DNA from: Ostreococcus lucimarinus
Taxonomy: Eukaryota
DNA: 64,000 nucleotides
Assembly: GCA_000092065.1 (NCBI GenBank)
Contig: CP000585.1
Reading direction: 5' to 3' (one strand)
Position numbers and translations under genes: made by a program. The notes beneath the pieces were generated by a model. The model saw only the letters and a program-made list of their open reading frames with translations, did no database searches and was not told the origin of the DNA. This document shows, in pieces, positions 23,835-43,544 of the stretch (its first letter is position 1; the number at the start of each line of letters is the position of its first letter).

Positions 23835-24051
23835 ATAGATACATATAGAGCAGTAGAGCAGTAGGATGGTAGATCGTTTGTTGTACAACATGAAAGTGAA
23901 TGAAGATTCAAAAACTTGTTCGCGCGCGCGTTTAGGGTTAGAGAATTTTCGTTTGAATCTTTCGCTGAGAGGTGGTGTTGAAATGAACACCATTTTGGTT
24001 TTTTGTTTGTTTGAGAGTGATACACCTTAGAAAGGATACGTCACCGGGCGC

Positions 24052-24570
<519 letters not shown>

Positions 24571-38204: not shown

Positions 38205-39920
38205 ATGCAAAGCGCGAGAACGAAACAGCTGCTCATTCTCGGGCATCGAAAAAATCGTACGAACGACTTGCTTCGTGAGCTCAGCGCGCGACGCGAATGT
38301 GACCCACAACTTTTGCTACGGCGAGAGAACTTGTCTGGAGAGCGTGACTCGAGCGGTGGGAGACGATGGAAGAGGACGCGTGAGCGATTGAAATCGGTAA
38401 CCGCCAAAGTCGATACTGGGCTACACCGTAAAAGGTTCACTCCGAGCGCGCCACGAGAGGCATTGTTGCCTCGAGTGGTTGTTGAACCAGCAGCACCCGC
38501 GTCTCCGGAGCACTCGTTCGAAGGCGCTCGCGGCGAGACTGAGTCATCGACCTCGACGAGTGATAACGGTGATATCAGCGCCTTTGCAGACGATGGTGAC
38601 GATCTAGAGCTTCCACCCCGTACTCGCGTGCGGATTAAGTGCGCTCGAGACGCCCGAGAGGCTTTGGAGGTTTTACGCTCGCGACCGCTCAGTCCGAGGT
38701 CCGTCGAAAAGTTTCGCGGCGCGCTAGAATTAATGCGAGCACAGCGCGCGCTGATTGAGGCTGAGTTGTTGAGAGCGAACGCGTCGAATCGCCTCGACGA
38801 GAGCGCAAATGGTGCAGGCATCGATGACGAAGGATCTGAGTCTGAGGTTGACGCCGTTGAAGATTACGATCCGACGGAGCAAATATCCGAAGAATTTGGC
38901 TCCGTCTTCGGCGCGGTGGCGCACGAGTCCAGAGACCTCCTCAAACGAGAGGCCGGAGGAACTAACATGAAAGAAGTCGAGAAACACTTACTTGAACACT
39001 ATCCAGCAATACGGAATATATTCAAGTACTACTCGAGCATGACGAAGCCTTTCGATGAGAACATCACCGCCGCCGAGTTGGGGAGCATGACGCTATCGGA
39101 TTGGATGACGTTTGTGAAGGACTGTAAACTCATCGGACCGCATCCCAGGCATCAGCTCGTGAAATCGAGCGCGGAGTTATTGTTCATAAGACTCAACTGG
39201 GTCACCGACGATCGCGGCAGAAAGGTGAAGAACCGAGATTTGTCCAACAGCGACCGGACGTTGATCATGCCCGAGTTCATTTGCGGCATACTGCGTTTGG
39301 CGAAGCAATGCGGCGTGCGGATGGATAATTTCGGGCTCACAGCGAGCCGTTTCATCAAAGATATCGTCTATCCACGCGCACACTCGGTGGACGTCGAAGA
39401 GTTCCGCACGCGAATGCGATTTCGCTCGGCAAGAGCCGCGCTCGACGCGTTTCAAGCCGACATCCGATCCGTCTTCGTGCGATACGCCGCCGCGGAGGCG
39501 AAATCCGCCATCGGTGGCGGTCTGGAGACCATGGATCTCAAAGAGCTCATGCAACTATGCCGCAACATCGACATCGTCACTTTCAACGACGCCGATCATC
39601 ACCTTCTCTCGCCGCTCGCCGTGCAGCACGCCTTCGCGCTCAGCCAGCTGCAAGTCGTCGGCGACGACGCCGGCGAGATCGACGCCGACGAGTTCATCGA
39701 GCTCATCGCTCGTCTCGCCGAAAACTTCTTCGACGTCTACTTCACCGCCATCGCTAACGCTCAATCCGCGCGCCTTCACCGCGTCTCCCATCCGGGCGAA
39801 AACGTCCTCGCCCTCGCGCCCGCCCCGCGCGTCGACGACGTCGCCCTCGCGCCCAAGCTCCGCTGGTTCCTCCCGCGCCTCGCCGCGGCGTCGTCGTCTC
39901 GTTCGGTACCTGTCCATTGA
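38205..39920 (+). CDS. Hypothetical protein with two tandem ~70-aa helical modules sharing an EFI..I.RLA signature
   Basis: 571-aa ORF with good GC3 bias. Module A is MTLSDWMTFVKDCKLIG...LIMPEFICGILRLAKQCG. Module B is MDLKELMQLCRNIDIVTF...IDADEFIELIARLAENFF. I do not recognise the family. Confidence 0.45.
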   Translation: MQSARTKQLLILGHRKNRTNDLLRELSARRECDPQLLLRRENLSGERDSSGGRRWKRTRERLKSVTAKVDTGLHRKRFTPSAPREALLPRVVVEPAAPASPEHSFEGARGETESSTSTSDNGDISAFADDGDDLELPPRTRVRIKCARDAREALEVLRSRPLSPRSVEKFRGALELMRAQRALIEAELLRANASNRLDESANGAGIDDEGSESEVDAVEDYDPTEQISEEFGSVFGAVAHESRDLLKREAGGTNMKEVEKHLLEHYPAIRNIFKYYSSMTKPFDENITAAELGSMTLSDWMTFVKDCKLIGPHPRHQLVKSSAELLFIRLNWVTDDRGRKVKNRDLSNSDRTLIMPEFICGILRLAKQCGVRMDNFGLTASRFIKDIVYPRAHSVDVEEFRTRMRFRSARAALDAFQADIRSVFVRYAAAEAKSAIGGGLETMDLKELMQLCRNIDIVTFNDADHHLLSPLAVQHAFALSQLQVVGDDAGEIDADEFIELIARLAENFFDVYFTAIANAQSARLHRVSHPGENVLALAPAPRVDDVALAPKLRWFLPRLAAASSSRSVPVH

Positions 39921-39977
39921 TGGACACTCATTCAGGTTCTTTACGCATTATTTACGCTCGATCGCGATAAACCGATC

Positions 39978-39986
39978 TAGGGTTTT
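39978..39986. promoter_or_regulatory. Telo-box-like element (AAAACCCTA on the minus strand) about 70 bp upstream of the RPS16 start
   Basis: Direct read of ctagggttttggg at 39977-39989. Its reverse complement contains AAACCCTA, the plant telo-box core typical of ribosomal-protein gene promoters. Confidence 0.35.
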
Positions 39987-40054
39987 GGGCTCGCGTCTCG
40001 CCCATCCGGCGACGCGCGCGTTTCGATCCGTCTTTCACCGACGCGCCGTCCATC

Positions 40055-40069
40055 ATGGCTGACCAAATG
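40055..40069 (+). CDS. RPS16: 40S ribosomal protein S16 (uS9), exon 1 (15-nt micro-exon, MADQM)
   Basis: ATG GCT GAC CAA ATG is followed by a GTGCGT donor at 40070. Confidence 0.5.
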
Positions 40070-40227
40070 GTGCGTCCCGACCTCGCGTCGAACGACAGAA
40101 ACAACCTTCGCGTCGTTCGTTCGTTCGCGCGCGCGCGCTTCGACTCGCCTCGCGCGCATCGTCGCGTCATCGTCTCGTGCGTATTGACCCTAACCGCGAC
40201 GTCCTCGGACGATCTTTCTCGACGCAG

Positions 40228-40251
40228 AGCGTGCAAACCTTCGGGCGCAAG
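40228..40251 (+). CDS. RPS16: 40S ribosomal protein S16, exon 2 (24-nt micro-exon, SVQTFGRK)
   Basis: A CAG acceptor at 40225-40227 is followed by AGC GTG CAA ACC TTC GGG CGC AAG, then a GTACGT donor at 40252. SVQTFGRK matches the conserved S16 N-terminus (human SVQVFGRKK). Confidence 0.6.
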
Positions 40252-40422
40252 GTACGTCGTCGCGCATCGATCGGTGACTCGTAATCGCATCTCTCGTATC
40301 GCGCGTCGTTCGCGACGCGGCGTCATCGGTGGGAGGCGCTCGTGCGGGATGGTTTCGCGGCGTGCGATCCGCTAGGGCTTGGGTTTGGACTCGACTGACG
40401 CCGAAACGCTCTTCTCGCGCAG

Positions 40423-40815
40423 AAAACTGCCGTCGCCGTGGCGCACACGAAGCGGGGCAAGGGCTTGATTCGCCTTAACGGTGTCCCGATCGATCTCGTG
40501 CAGCCGGACACGCTCCGACTCAAGGCGGTCGAACCCATTCTGTTGCTCGGTAAGGAGCGATTCGCGAACGTGGACATTCGCATTCGCGTGAAGGGTGGCG
40601 GACACGTGTCGCAAATGTACGCCGTGCGTCAGGCGATTGCGAAGTCTCTCGTGGCGTATTACCAGAAGTATGTCGATGAGGCGAGCAAGAAGGAGATCAA
40701 GGACCTTTTGTTGGCGTACGACAGAACCTTGCTCGTCGCGGATCCGCGCCGCATGGAGCCGAAGAAGGCTGGCGGTCGCGGTGCCCGCGCGCGCTTCCAA
40801 AAGTCTTACCGTTAA
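40423..40815 (+). CDS. RPS16: 40S ribosomal protein S16, exon 3 (main body)
   Basis: A CAG acceptor at 40420-40422 is followed by [130 protein letters not shown]. This is near-identical by eye to eukaryotic RPS16. Confidence 0.9.
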
Positions 40816-40992
40816 AATTTCTCGCGTTATCGTGGAAATTTTATGGCGGGGGACGACTTTGTGAGTGTCGACATAGTATTAGACGGACAGACAATTTAGG
40901 TTTTGTGATTAAAGGAGAGACGCAGACCGACGAAAATGGTGAAACGCGCGCATCCCGGCAGACCCACAGCAAGAACCTTTTTACACTAATCA

Positions 40993-42510
40993 TTACAACA
41001 TTGAATCCAAAGAATCGCTCATCGAGCGAACGCGCGATACGGAAGAGCGGAGACGCTTCGCCAAGCCCGCTCCGAACTCTACCAGCACGAAACCGCTCGC
41101 GCTGGCGATGATGGCAAATGCCCACGCCGTGCTCGCGGCCGGGTATCCGAGCTCGTGCACCAAGGAAGAACCGAATAACTGACCGAGCATTTCTCCAAAA
41201 AAGTAGCAGCTCACGAAAAGTCCGTTTGCTAAATCTGCGTACTTTGGTCCGTCGTTTCTGACAGACGCTTGCATCAAGGGCAAGAGCGGTACAAACGCAA
41301 AGGCGCTTCCGACCCCGTAAACAACGCTTGGAAACCACACGCAAAGCCGCCTTCGGGCCGTCGCACTCAGTGGATCAGGCAATCCTAGCAAAGACGAAGG
41401 GCCGAAGAAAAAGTGTGCGACTGACATGGACGCCATGCCGATGAGGCACAGTACGATGTCGCCCACTTTTGAGTTCGGAGTGTGCGAAACAATGCCAACG
41501 ATCGGCGTCACGAGCGCATACAGCCCAGCGAGTAACGAGTACACCAAGCCAATCGTAGCTGGTGAAAAGTTCAGCGTTTGATGAAGATATAGCGGAAGAG
41601 TGGTCGGAATCCCGCCGAAACTCGTGGACACGACAAGTTCGGCCAAGGCGGCGGCCAAGAAAGTCGGCCGACGAAGCACGCGAGCATAACTCGGCCTTTC
41701 CTCCTGCGAGGGCCCGGACATTTGACCACGGTCGTCGCGACCGTCGAGTCGACGCATCGCGTACATCACTGGAGGAATTGACAGCAAAATGGCGGCGCCG
41801 TTCGCCATCAGAGGTAACTTTGGCGACGAATGAATGTCGTACAAAAATCCACCGAAAATCGGCCCAAAGAGAGTCCCGAAGCCCGCGGCTACTTCTTGCA
41901 ACCCGCTTGTGATGCTCACCGCATCTGGCGCCGCTCGCGTCACCACGCACAGCATTGTCACGCTCGTCAACGCGTTGAAAAATCCCTGAAACAACCTACA
42001 CACCAACCAAACTCTCCAGCGCGCTCGTCCCGCGAACGCGCTCGTCGCCAATACGCACGCCGCCTGCCCCAAGAGCGAATATTTCGCCACCATCGTCGCG
42101 TCGAACCGCCACAGTACCCTCGGTGCGATCGTCGGCGACACCACGAGCACGCCGAACGGCAACGCCGCGAACGTCGCTCCCACCCGCGTCGCGTCGAGTC
42201 CCGCTCGCGCGAACTCTTGGCTCAGAAATGGAAACGGCACCGACATCGACATCGTCGTCACGACCAGCGACAGCGCGAACGCCCCGAGCACCCATCCGTG
42301 CTCGCGCACGACCTCCCTCGCGCTCGCGCGCCGCCCCGACGCGTCCAAGTCGTCGCGCGTTCCGTCTTCGCGAGGCGTCCCGAGCAACGGCGCCGTCCCG
42401 AGCTCGACGCTCCGCGCGTCGCGTTCCGAGTCGGACTCGCTCGAGCGATCGCGCGCGTCGTCGTCGTTTCCGTCGCCGTCGTCGTCGTCCGTCGCGCTCG
42501 CGCTCGACAT
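40993..42510 (-). CDS. Major facilitator superfamily transporter (12 predicted transmembrane helices)
   Basis: 505-aa model from the Met at 42510 (MSSASATDDDD). The body alternates hydrophobic helices with short loops (WVLGAFALSLVVTTMSM, FGVLVVSPTIA, LFGPIFGGFLYD, LLAGLYALVTPIVGIV, AFAIIASASGFVLVEF). The ORF track extends further 5' through Pro/Arg-rich sequence that I discount. Confidence 0.65.
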   Translation of the reverse strand: MSSASATDDDDGDGNDDDARDRSSESDSERDARSVELGTAPLLGTPREDGTRDDLDASGRRASAREVVREHGWVLGAFALSLVVTTMSMSVPFPFLSQEFARAGLDATRVGATFAALPFGVLVVSPTIAPRVLWRFDATMVAKYSLLGQAACVLATSAFAGRARWRVWLVCRLFQGFFNALTSVTMLCVVTRAAPDAVSITSGLQEVAAGFGTLFGPIFGGFLYDIHSSPKLPLMANGAAILLSIPPVMYAMRRLDGRDDRGQMSGPSQEERPSYARVLRRPTFLAAALAELVVSTSFGGIPTTLPLYLHQTLNFSPATIGLVYSLLAGLYALVTPIVGIVSHTPNSKVGDIVLCLIGMASMSVAHFFFGPSSLLGLPDPLSATARRRLCVWFPSVVYGVGSAFAFVPLLPLMQASVRNDGPKYADLANGLFVSCYFFGEMLGQLFGSSLVHELGYPAASTAWAFAIIASASGFVLVEFGAGLAKRLRSSVSRVRSMSDSLDSML

Positions 42511-42761
42511 CACGCGCCGGCGTCGCCGCGCATCGAGTCGTCGAGTGCCGCGACGGCATTGGTCGACGTCCGACGCGCGCGATGGCGACGACTCGATGCG
42601 CGACGACGGTGCGAAGCGCGACGTGCATCGCGCACGCGCGATTCGCTCGGTCGACGCGCGACGCGCGGTGCGCGACGGCGACGACGACGCGCGCGCGGTG
42701 TCCCGGTGGCGGCGGCGCGTTCGCTTTTTCGACGACGAATGCGACGCGTGCGACGCGCGTG

Positions 42762-43544
42762 ATGACGCGCGGGACGGAAGAGCGCGACGAAGGGTCGAGT
42801 TCGAACTGGGAAGATCTGTTCGAGCAGTTTGAACGGCAGAACGCGGACGCGGAGGCGGCGCAAGCGATCCCACGGCACAAGACGAGGGCGCTCGAGCGCG
42901 CGCTCGCGCGGGGACGGCGCAAGGTTGAGGTTCGAGAGCTGTGTCGCGAGCTGGAATTGGAGCGACACGAGGTTCTGGGATGGTTAAAGCGCAATGGACA
43001 TCGCGCCGAGACGCTCGCGAAGAAGTTTGCGGAAGAGTTAGTGCAGGAGGATGAGGCGGCGGCGGCGGCGGCGGCGGAGCGCGAGGCGCGCGCGCAAGCC
43101 AAGGCAAAGCGAGACGCGGCGGATGAGGCGAAGGGATCTGGAGCGCGCGGTCCGGGTGGGATGCCGGCGTATAAGTCGTACAAGAAGACGAGGTTGGGAT
43201 CGTCGAACGTGGCGACGCTGGAAAAGGTGTACGCCATGACGCAGTATCCCGACGACGCCCTGATCGAGAGCGTACGACAGGCAACCAAGCTGCCGGCGAG
43301 TAAGATTATCAACTGGTTTCAAGAACGCCGTCGAGGAGCGTCGCCGTCGGCGATGCGACGCGACCGTGACGTTGTGAATAGGCAGGTGGATCGGCGAGGG
43401 ACGACCGGCGGGTACTCGTACACGCGCCGAGATGAACGCGACGAAGGAAGAGGTCTCCGCAGAGGCGATGCTCGCGACGAGTACGGTGGAGGCGGTGGTG
43501 AGCGTCGCGGACGAGACGATGCTTCCGATTGGTCTCCGAATTAA
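42762..43544 (+). CDS. Homeobox-domain protein (atypical homeodomain)
   Basis: YKKTRLGSSNVATLEKVYAMTQYPDDALIESVRQATKLPASKIINWFQERRR has the homeodomain helix-3 signature WFQ.RR. The N-terminal region is acidic and the C-terminal tail is RGG-like. Start set at the Met at 42762, since the ORF upstream overlaps the MFS gene antisense. Confidence 0.55.
   Translation: MTRGTEERDEGSSSNWEDLFEQFERQNADAEAAQAIPRHKTRALERALARGRRKVEVRELCRELELERHEVLGWLKRNGHRAETLAKKFAEELVQEDEAAAAAAAEREARAQAKAKRDAADEAKGSGARGPGGMPAYKSYKKTRLGSSNVATLEKVYAMTQYPDDALIESVRQATKLPASKIINWFQERRRGASPSAMRRDRDVVNRQVDRRGTTGGYSYTRRDERDEGRGLRRGDARDEYGGGGGERRGRDDASDWSPN

Follow-up and report, generated by a model that had tools for sequence, protein, structure and literature searches.

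Our analysis of a 64,000-nucleotide stretch of Ostreococcus lucimarinus DNA (the window) makes it very likely that positions 40055 to 40815 hold a single nuclear RPS16 gene with two canonical U2-type GT-AG introns, which stand at old, inherited positions and, judging by the 64-kb window and by comparison of one with the other, do not belong to a repeated intron family. The coding sequence lies on the plus strand in three pieces. The coding part of exon 1 (ATGGCTGACCAAATG, 40055-40069) encodes MADQM and is followed directly by the 5' splice site GTGCGT. Intron 1 (40070-40227; 158 nt, phase 0, GTGCGTC...CAG) leads to exon 2 (AGCGTGCAAACCTTCGGGCGCAAG, 40228-40251), whose 24 nt encode SVQTFGRK and stand between a cag and a gtacgt. 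Intron 2 (40252-40422; 171 nt, phase 0, GTACGTC...CAG) ends in the cag after which the coding part of exon 3 begins with AAAACTGCC (40423-40815; 393 nt including the stop), encoding KTAVAVAH...FQKSYR up to the TAA at 40813-40815. The coordinates and sequences that the first-pass annotation gave for these pieces are right to the base. It also spoke of two micro-exons. The term suits exon 2, an internal exon within the limit of 30 nt that has functional splice sites on both sides and is included in the transcript-type contigs described below. The 15 nt, on the other hand, are the coding part only of a first exon that also holds 5'UTR, the contigs being collinear with the window upstream of the ATG.

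Joining the pieces (15 + 24 + 393 nt) yields a 432-nt ORF for a uS9/S16 protein of 143 aa, and this exact product is on record as P0121. It matches the full Pfam PF00380 (Ribosomal_S9/S16) profile (positions 1-121 of 121, residues 11-143, E 6.7e-37). Both conserved eukaryotic termini are present, SVQ(T/V)FGRKK at the N-terminus and (F/Y)QKSYR at the C-terminus, and the product is collinear with its orthologues. Micromonas S16 proteins, which have the N-terminus MATQSVQTFGRKKTAVAV, are 83% identical to it over 100% of the query; plant and animal S16 proteins are 76-80% identical. Within Ostreococcus, the protein encoded by exon 3 shows 95-99% amino-acid identity to the other lineages, S16 of O. 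tauri RCC4221 is ~95% identical to the product of the window, and XP_001417833.1 of O. lucimarinus is 100% identical over residues 5-143. Thus the full-length domain, both termini and an ORF of the spliced type (taking the sequencing runs behind the intron-less contigs to be RNA) place the protein among eukaryotic cytosolic uS9/S16 (RPS16) proteins.

The structure is ordinary and already known in public annotation. In O. tauri RCC4221 the curated model CEF98090.1/XP_022839074.1 (143 aa, MSEQMSVQ...) spans 956 nt and has the same 15+24+393-nt structure, its CDS being interrupted in phase 0 after nt 15 and again after nt 39. In the curated O. tauri annotation, 89% of introns are reported to be RNA-seq-validated (PMC4378021). 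Gene callers had been suspected of missing such small exons easily, and indeed they do: P0001, P0004, P0007 and P0124 run on from intron 2 into exon 3 or begin within the latter, P0004 being the faulty 190-aa model OUS47830.1 of O. tauri RCC1115. A by-product of our analysis is a list of public gene calls without the two small exons, which includes this GenBank model of O. tauri RCC1115 and very many metagenome calls. Beyond annotation hygiene of this kind, the RPS16 structure is of little importance.

XP_001417833.1 (P0130), the RefSeq protein of O. lucimarinus, differs from our product only in that it starts at Met5 (MSVQTFGRK), without the first four residues. Translation could accordingly start at the second ATG (40067-40069), which is invariant across all lineages; the protein would then have 139 aa, and the first 12 nt of exon 1 would be 5'UTR. 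We consider this start unlikely. The first ATG is likewise invariant in 7/7 lineages, where the start of the gene conforms to ATG-NNN-GAN-CAA-ATG|GTRCG, and the frame between the two ATGs is open, with conservative changes only (A/S, D/E), whereas the sequence immediately before the first ATG is not conserved. The same start is used in the curated O. tauri model, and the N-termini that precede SVQ in relatives are equal in length (MATQ-S in Micromonas, MSSQ-S in Bathycoccus, MAEKE-S in Coccomyxa). The first AUG is the one normally used by scanning ribosomes. On this evidence the RefSeq model of O. lucimarinus probably sets its start four codons too far downstream.

Three Logan contigs (L011-L013), assembled from the public runs SRR17229381, SRR28369218 and SRR28369158, carry an uninterrupted 432-nt ORF for the exact 143-aa product. 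Exactly 40070-40227 and 40252-40422 are missing from them, and they are otherwise 99.4-100% identical to the window. Their junctions are 40069^40228 and 40251^40423, and exon 2 is matched at 100% between the two; L012 and L013 align to the window through 40069 and resume at 40227/40228. L023-L025, which are metagenome contigs of 20-67 kb from the same species, keep both introns and are 99-100% identical. From the exact loss of both introns, taken with the intron-keeping genomic contigs of the same species, we infer that L011-L013 are transcripts. The description of RPS16 as a gene whose coding start measures 15 nt, whose internal micro-exon measures 24 nt and whose two GT-AG introns are both in phase 0 is hence backed by intron-less contigs of the transcript type. 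A search of JGI metagenome contigs for the exact spliced E1-E2-E3 pattern gave no match; it was by looking up the exact protein that L011-L013 were reached. The three-piece structure is not due to chance, since the exact product is on record, intron-less contigs exist, and the 24-nt exon is conserved together with its AG/GT flanks.

L011-L013 could also be genomic DNA of strains in which both introns had been precisely lost, and the collinearity of L012 and L013 with the genome across both intergenic regions into the neighbouring genes would fit such an origin. However, Ostreococcus UTRs overlap and neighbouring transcripts are reported to be concatenated in RNA-seq assemblies (PMC4378021), which explains the flanks of L012 and L013. 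Every long genomic contig of this species and its relatives retains both introns. The 5' end of L011 is an unrelated aspartyl-protease fragment, typical of chimeric transcript assembly. Furthermore, L015, a contig of a sister lineage, equals the genomic contig L021 minus intron 2 and retains the 3' end of intron 1, while 81-108 kb genomic contigs of its lineage hold both introns, which is the pattern of a splicing intermediate. Even if L011-L013 were genomic, precise intron loss would itself imply a reverse-transcribed spliced mRNA. We regard a genomic origin of these contigs as very improbable and treat them as transcripts.

The partially spliced contig L015, a single case, suggests that intron 2 can be removed before intron 1. 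Both introns are short and strongly marked, and the spliceosome would be expected to define introns here and not exons. Under intron definition an internal exon of 24 nt would be tolerated.

A conserved pyrimidine-rich block, GATCCGTCTTTC (40026..40037, plus strand), lies 18-29 nt upstream of the ATG. Its ATCCG[CT]CTTT is conserved in 3/4 Ostreococcus lineages of alignment A1; the variant in L006, AATCCGCCTTT, is misaligned in A1 and was spotted by eye. A cDNA-type contig of Micromonas commoda (L010) starts with GGGGG+CTCTTTG at the equivalent genomic CCCTCTTTG. By analogy, GATCCGTCTTTC is probably the transcription start region, TOP/initiator-like in character, and a start of transcription some 20-30 nt before the ATG is probable. 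If it starts at GATCCGTCTTTC, exon 1 as RNA would measure ~40 nt and not 15, an estimate that borrows from the Micromonas cDNA end.

Further upstream, 64-79 nt before the ATG, TCTAGGGTTTTGGGCT (39976..39991, no strand assigned) is a putative promoter element. It places a telo-box-like TAGGGTTT (39978-39985, in reverse orientation, the reverse of AAACCCTA) beside a Site-II-like TGGGCT, which holds the reverse of GCCCA, and ACCCTAG reads on the minus strand at 39977-39983. A telo-box is AAACCCTA(A) near the transcription start of a translation-apparatus gene, and the agreement found here is a match of sequence only. ACCCTAR is not significantly enriched in the window (5 sites vs 2.3 expected, a number reached by 8/100 shuffles), and the upstream telo-box-like copy is not conserved in other Ostreococcus lineages.

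Both introns carry the strict Ostreococcus signals, namely GTRCGT at the 5' end, a branch site of the form CTRAC that lies 21-34 nt before the 3' end, and CAG as the last three letters. The published consensus for O. lucimarinus is GTGCGTG at the 5' splice site and GACTGACG at the branch site (Irimia and Roy 2008, PMC2483917), and GACTGACG is also given as the extended Ostreococcus branch-point consensus in PMC3879977. Intron 2 holds an exact match to this branch-point motif, GACTGACG at 40393..40400 on the plus strand, 21 nt before the terminal AG. ACTRAC is present 23-34 nt from the 3' splice site of intron 2 in 6/7 lineages; L035 has GCTGAC. In intron 1 the branch-point region is TGACCCTAACCGCG (40185..40198, plus strand), in which CTAAC would provide the branch A at ~40193, 34 nt before the 3' splice site. 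The region shows up as 14 invariant columns in alignment A1. The longest k-mer common to all 7 lineages is TGACCCTAAC, which lies always 27-33 nt from the 3' splice site, is mostly unpaired by prediction and differs from the genus consensus GACTGACG. A branch-point role for the CTAAC of intron 1 is suggested by where it lies and by the CTRAC motif. In their boundaries, branch motif and precise excision, both are canonical U2-type Ostreococcus introns. Scanning the 64-kb window for GTRCGT...WCTRAC...YAG returned 14 candidates vs 14.3 expected, so that such a scan has no discriminating power.

As judged by comparison between lineages, both RPS16 introns are old and inherited. They are found in all seven Ostreococcus lineages sampled, where orthologues of intron 1 measure 155-175 nt. 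Exons, splice sites and branch sites are conserved, whereas the intron interiors are 40-62% identical among lineages, as compared with 47-52% for shuffled sequence. Likewise, the position of intron 2 (GRK|K, phase 0) recurs in Coccomyxa elongata, in the sponge Oscarella lobularis and in the jellyfish Rhopilema esculentum.

The first-pass annotation had raised a common, introner-like origin of the two introns, pointing to their similar sizes and near-identical ctcg(a)cgcag tails; the origin is not supported. Lengths (158 and 171 nt) and ends (GTRCGTC..., ...CTCG(A)CGCAG) are indeed alike. The introns share one 11-mer, CGCGTCGTTCG, and a 27-nt stretch at 74% identity, their global alignment score is reached by only 2/1000 full shuffles, and introner elements are present in the related genus Micromonas (PMC3879977, PMC4540971). 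However, the excess in global score vanishes once the splice-site ends are fixed (167/1000 shuffles reach it; 162/1000 for the interiors alone), and the best local intron-intron alignment scores 22, below the dinucleotide-shuffle mean of 24.7. Within the 64-kb window there is no further copy of either intron, and the longest match other than self covers 22 nt of low-complexity, CG-rich sequence. No repeats, inverted or direct, stand at the ends of the introns; only short CG-rich partial repeats are seen, none of them terminal. Both introns occupy the same sites in seven diverged Ostreococcus lineages, with wholly different interiors and an intron 2 of 171-368 nt; outside the genus, the position of intron 2 is common to a trebouxiophyte, a sponge and a jellyfish, and that of intron 1 to Chloropicon. 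The tails are really present but conserved in no orthologue, and the likeness in size is a chance feature of this lineage: in other Ostreococcus, intron 2 measures 247-368 nt. We attribute the similarity of size and tail, peculiar to this lineage, to the strict Ostreococcus splice consensus; the features common to both introns are the genus-wide splice consensus. The marks of introners (mutual similarity along the length, recent gain, terminal repeats or target-site duplications) are absent from the RPS16 introns, and it is scarcely credible that both are copies of a mobile introner-like element inserted twice in this gene.

What stands out in this otherwise ordinary gene are small conserved telomere-like motifs in both introns and an unusual lack of synonymous change in the 24-nt exon. 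The intron sequence around exon 2 has decayed to near-random identity across the seven Ostreococcus lineages. Exon 2 itself is identical at 24/24 nucleotides in 6/7 lineages and at 23/24 in the seventh, and its third codon positions vary at 1/8, as against 87/130 in exon 3. A GCTAGGG island in intron 2 (40371..40377, plus strand), with the telomere-repeat or telo-box-like core TAGGG, forms seven invariant columns in A1. The motif [C/G]TAGGG[C/T] lies 121-126 nt from the 5' splice site of intron 2 in 7/7 lineages, whatever the length of the intron. A CCCTAA core in intron 1 and a TAGGG core in intron 2 are both conserved, and they are spaced 183-187 nt apart in the seven lineages. We propose, tentatively and as the less probable reading of these motifs, that the RPS16 introns carry more than splicing signals, either intragenic telo-box-type elements or a device for splicing order or autoregulation around the micro-exon. 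If intragenic telo-box elements were at work, the regulon logic of plant ribosomal proteins would date back to prasinophytes. The conserved intronic motifs are candidate regulatory elements in an alga that is genetically tractable.

We also considered whether a splicing order is enforced by pairing of GACCCUA, in the branch region of intron 1, with UAGGGUC of intron 2, and found this unsupported. Pairing is predicted with a probability of ~1 in O. tauri alone; the value is ~0.1 in two lineages and ~0 in four, the window among them, and the pairing shows no covariation because the intron 1 motif is invariant. With regard to intronic snoRNAs or other known RNAs, Rfam matched nothing in the region of the window with E up to 1. 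Nine orthologous loci, each scanned in full with E up to 0.1, yielded no more than four chance matches, all sub-threshold, and no consistent C/D boxes were seen by eye. A search of the open literature gave nothing usable on RPS16 splicing autoregulation.

How does the gene compare with known systems? In plant ribosomal-protein promoters the telo-box AAACCCT and the Site II element GCCCA are adjacent (PMC3212954), and the module is placed 5'-proximally (PMC3212954, PMC2576244). The window has TAGGGTTT directly beside TGGGCT, a likeness that is one of sequence only. The two introns resemble the canonical Ostreococcus introns of non-outlier chromosomes in their 5' splice sites (GTGCGTC and GTACGTC vs GTGCGTG), and their lengths are near the genome mean, which is 168 nt in O. 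lucimarinus, with a median of 111 nt (PMC2483917). Both place the branch site close to the AG, and intron 2 has the exact branch motif of canonical Ostreococcus introns. The branch region of intron 1, CCCTAAC, 33 nt before the 3' end of the intron, differs from the canonical ACTGAC, yet is invariant across lineages.

The introner elements of Micromonas number hundreds to thousands of copies that are nearly identical, and they are polymorphic among closely related clades (Verhelst 2013, PMC3879977; Simmons 2015, PMC4540971). Like the RPS16 introns they are short GT-AG introns with strong branch motifs, and the IE-C class carries GACTGACG (PMC3879977). Unlike them, the RPS16 introns show no mutual similarity, are not repeated elsewhere in the window and stand fixed at positions that are ancient.

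RPS16 of Bathycoccus prasinos (CAL6366241.1) is without intron 1, and its intron 2 is shifted by 1 nt into phase 2. In Micromonas RPS16, intron 2 is missing, intron 1 stands one codon further downstream with respect to SVQ, and an additional intron lies at N|G. Introns near the 5' end, behind very small first coding exons, are known from ribosomal protein genes of other eukaryotes too, RPS16 of Chloropicon and of Coccomyxa being examples. The gene of Chloropicon roscoffensis has a coding exon 1 of 6 nt (ATGGAG) and then an intron directly before SVQ, as in Ostreococcus intron 1. In Coccomyxa elongata, coding exon 1 measures 9 nt and exon 2 measures 30 nt, and they are bounded by the GRK|K phase-0 intron. 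Ostreococcus differs from Coccomyxa and the animals in that all downstream introns that those retain are lost, and the exact exon sizes differ. The two introns have been lost differentially in these relatives, Bathycoccus having kept intron 2 only, and Micromonas and Chloropicon only an intron that adjoins the SVQ codons. RPS16 offers a clean case, within Mamiellales, of two ancient 5' introns that were lost in different relatives.

RPS16 is read in three pieces from the plus strand. The coding part of exon 1 (40055-40069) is ATGGCTGACCAAATG and is followed by GTGCGT, intron 1 (40070-40227, 158 nt) ends in CAG, exon 2 (40228-40251) is AGCGTGCAAACCTTCGGGCGCAAG and is followed by GTACGT, intron 2 (40252-40422, 171 nt) also ends in CAG, and exon 3 (40423-40815) runs to a TAA stop. 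Each junction falls in phase 0, and the spliced ORF of 432 nt encodes a 143-aa protein with the C-terminus FQKSYR. The product matches Pfam PF00380 (Ribosomal_S9/S16) across the entire profile (E 6.7e-37), and eukaryotic S16 proteins align with it end to end, both Micromonas species at 83% identity with full (100%) query coverage. The three-piece structure of the first-pass annotation was exact in sequence and coordinates, and its reading of the gene was right.

The same 143-aa protein is already public (P0121, exact-sequence look-up) and is encoded without interruption on three Logan assemblies, L011 (SRR17229381), L012 (SRR28369218) and L013 (SRR28369158). BLASTN of L012 and L013 against the window aligns 39763 or 39597 to 40069, respectively, then 40227/8-40251, then exon 3 onward, at 99.4-100% identity; what is missing is both introns exactly and nothing more. 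L012 and L013 also enter neighbouring genes. We infer with confidence that all three contigs are transcript-derived. The first 380 nt of L011 encode an unrelated aspartyl-protease C-terminal fragment (Pfam PF00026, E 6.5e-14), joined ~3 nt before the RPS16 ATG and without counterpart in the window; this part is likely a chimeric join from the assembly or the library. A JGI contig of a sister lineage, L015 (1-130, compared with 1177-1503 of genomic contig L021), equals L021 minus intron 2 (L021 1255-1503) and keeps the 3' end of intron 1. It looks like a splicing intermediate, a partially spliced RNA, and this single observation hints that intron 2 can be removed ahead of intron 1. An alternative 5' structure was absent from all intron-less or partly spliced contigs examined. 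Together the results show the RPS16 gene, where its introns begin and end, that both are excised, and that the structure is conserved.

A protein search returns only Ostreococcus proteins as nearest to the product. The curated O. tauri RCC4221 model (CEF98090.1 / XP_022839074.1, P0134) is also 143 aa long, with the N-terminus MSEQMSVQTFGRKK; spliced mapping puts its two introns after nt 15 and nt 39 of the CDS, phase 0, in a gene of 956 nt, so that the 15+24+393 architecture is common to both species. The structure is thus already in curated public annotation and is an ordinary, known feature. Furthermore, JGI metagenome contigs L023-L025 (20-67 kb) match the window at 99-100% identity over exons and introns, so the window belongs to O. 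lucimarinus or to a strain almost identical to it. Public models of RPS16 frequently err at the 5' end (P0130, P0001, P0004, P0007, P0124, P0135 and P0137), and the expectation that such small exons are easily missed was borne out. P0130, the O. lucimarinus RefSeq model (XP_001417833.1, 139 aa), starts at Met5 of the product and equals it from there to residue 143. The 190-aa O. tauri RCC1115 protein OUS47830.1 (P0004) and many metagenome calls (125-250 aa) either translate intron 2 sequence ahead of exon 3 or begin within exon 3, and miss both small exons. The analysis is of minor use, in fixing public gene models and in flagging small conserved intronic motifs.

We compared RPS16 loci of seven Ostreococcus lineages (the window, L021, L002, L035, L006, L026, and O. 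tauri on L001 and L014), obtained by looking up mis-called public proteins and by one scan of metagenome contigs. The string ATG-NNN-GAN-CAA-ATG/GTRCG (the slash marks the exon-intron junction) is present in all seven. Intron 1 measures 155-175 nt and intron 2 171-368 nt, and the 24-nt exon is kept throughout, identical at 24/24 positions in six lineages and at 23/24 in the remaining one. Between lineages, the interiors of the introns are 40-62% identical by global alignment, versus 47-52% for shuffled sequence. Conserved islands in an alignment of four lineages cover all three exons (exon 1 with its 5' splice site, exon 2 with the splice sites on either side), along with TGACCCTAACCGCG inside intron 1 and GCTAGGG inside intron 2. 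At the sequence level this is the pattern of purifying selection on the two small exons and the splice signals. Third codon positions vary at 1/8 sites in exon 2 versus 87/130 in exon 3 among the seven lineages (binomial P 0.0025), and of 123 eight-codon windows in exon 3 only one is equally invariant. The near-frozen synonymous sites of exon 2 suggest a constraint at the RNA level, such as splicing signals. In O. tauri (L014, L001) the two-gene block of a 570-aa unknown protein and RPS16 seems inverted relative to its neighbours when synteny is compared with L002 and window 38205-43284: O. tauri has TP_methylase downstream, on the opposite strand, but in L002 it is upstream and on the same strand, and an MFS transporter is downstream and antisense in both the window and L002.

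Intron positions in other taxa were obtained by mapping exact annotated proteins onto genomic loci; exact look-up assigns the L072 type to Bathycoccus prasinos (CAL6366241.1) and the L038 type to Chloropicon roscoffensis (WZN65211.1). All seven Ostreococcus lineages have an intron after nt 15, immediately 5' of SVQ, one after nt 39 (GRK/K), both phase 0, and no others. Coccomyxa elongata has an intron after nt 9 and the GRK/K phase-0 intron, giving first coding exons of 9 and 30 nt, and four more introns. The sponge Oscarella lobularis and the jellyfish Rhopilema esculentum have none near SVQ, and both carry the GRK/K phase-0 intron together with the Y/A and K/(F or Y) phase-1 introns of Coccomyxa. 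In Bathycoccus (loci L042, L062 and, of the B. prasinos type, L072) intron 1 is lost, exon 1 is 35 nt, and intron 2 lies 1 nt upstream (CGCAA/GTACGT...CAG/AAAAACT, phase 2 versus 0). Micromonas pusilla and M. commoda (L008, L009) have the homologous intron 1, also after nt 15 but one codon further downstream when measured from SVQ, have lost intron 2, and carry an extra N/G phase-1 intron common to Coccomyxa. C. roscoffensis has an intron immediately 5' of SVQ, after a 6-nt coding exon ATGGAG, and none at GRK/K; in Populus the CDS is intron-free. From these mapped positions, intron 2 is older than the plant-animal split. Intron 1 dates back at least to the common ancestor of Mamiellophyceae and Chloropicophyceae, unless it recurs at a hot spot, and Ostreococcus is the lineage that retains both.

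A common origin of the two introns as introner-like elements, raised by the first-pass annotation, is not supported by pairwise scores, window copies or these old positions. Positions that are old and shared run directly counter to the prediction for a recent introner insertion. The best local alignment of the two introns is an 11-mer, CGCGTCGTTCG, which scores 22, less than the average of 24.7 for 1000 dinucleotide shuffles. The global score of 19 is reached by only 2/1000 full shuffles, controls in which the shared splice signals are destroyed; it is reached by 167/1000 when 6 nt at the start and 12 nt at the end are kept fixed, and the score of the interiors alone by 162/1000. No further copy of either intron was found in the 64-kb window (longest non-self match ≤22 nt, CG-rich low complexity), and neither intron has terminal repeats. 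Both introns start with GTRCGTC, have a branch motif ~20-35 nt before their end and finish in a pyrimidine/CG-rich tail with a terminal CAG. Canonical Ostreococcus introns have an unusually strict consensus, GTGCGTG and GACTGACG, and a genome mean length of 168 nt (PMC2483917; PMC3879977), and the shared features match it. The likeness of the tails is missing from every orthologue: intron 1 tails there include GTCGACACAG, CCGTCACAG and CCGCGTGCAG, and intron 2 tails AACGTACAG, CACGCGTAG and CCTCGACAG. The similar intron sizes hold in the window lineage, which has the shortest intron 2, and are peculiar to it.

Transcription probably starts within a pyrimidine block, GATCCGTCTTTC (40026-40037, plus strand), 18-29 nt 5' of the ATG, in which ATCCG[CT]CTTT is conserved. 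The M. commoda equivalent, CCCTCTTTG (L009 ~2445-2460), coincides with the 5' end of a cDNA-type contig beginning GGGGG+CTCTTTG (L010 1-20), suggesting that a TOP-like start is common to Mamiellales RPS16 genes. With such a start exon 1 would be ~40 nt as RNA, so that of the two proposed micro-exons only the 24-nt exon 2 would deserve the name. Given short introns and near-invariant signals, intron definition would be expected, and a 24-nt internal exon tolerated. Were intron 2 removed first, the splicing of intron 1 would meet the micro-exon as the 5' end of a 417-nt exon. Translation more likely begins at the first ATG (40055): 7/7 lineages keep both ATGs with an uninterrupted frame between them, the curated O. 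tauri model uses the first, and the N-termini of relatives are of equal length.

The branch region of intron 1, an island in intron 2, the frozen sites of exon 2 and a telo-box likeness lie outside this ordinary reading and are not explained by it. The branch region (40185-40198) is TGACCCTAAC in 7/7 lineages, where the genus consensus has GACTGACG, and the island (40371-40377) is [C/G]TAGGG[C/T] at +121 to +126 from the 5' splice site in 7/7 lineages, whatever the intron length; the core-to-core spacing is 183-187 nt in all seven. Being conserved, these motifs are probably functional. Their cores are telomere-repeat-like and mutually complementary. Folding predicts pairing between them in O. 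tauri only and otherwise does not support an RNA duplex. No Rfam family matched the RPS16 introns of the window at E up to 1, and the window shows no significant enrichment of ACCCTAR. A full telo-box-like TAACCCTAAACGCG (23927-23940, minus strand) lies in intergenic sequence ~115 nt past the stop of a minus-strand histone H3 gene (~24055-24300) that ends near 24055. Micromonas intron 1 contains AAAACCCTAAAT or AAAAACCCTAGT, and Bathycoccus has AGTAGGGTCG ~65 nt 5' of the ATG. In the window promoter, upstream of the ATG, 39976-39991 is TCTAGGGTTTTGGGCT, where TAGGGTTT adjoins TGGGCT; by resemblance this is a reverse telo-box (AAACCCTA) beside a Site-II-like motif, a pair that other Ostreococcus lineages do not keep at this place. 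A telo-box with a neighbouring Site II is a known arrangement of plant ribosomal-protein promoters, and the RPS16 cores and nearby motifs are alike to this plant module (PMC3212954, PMC2576244).
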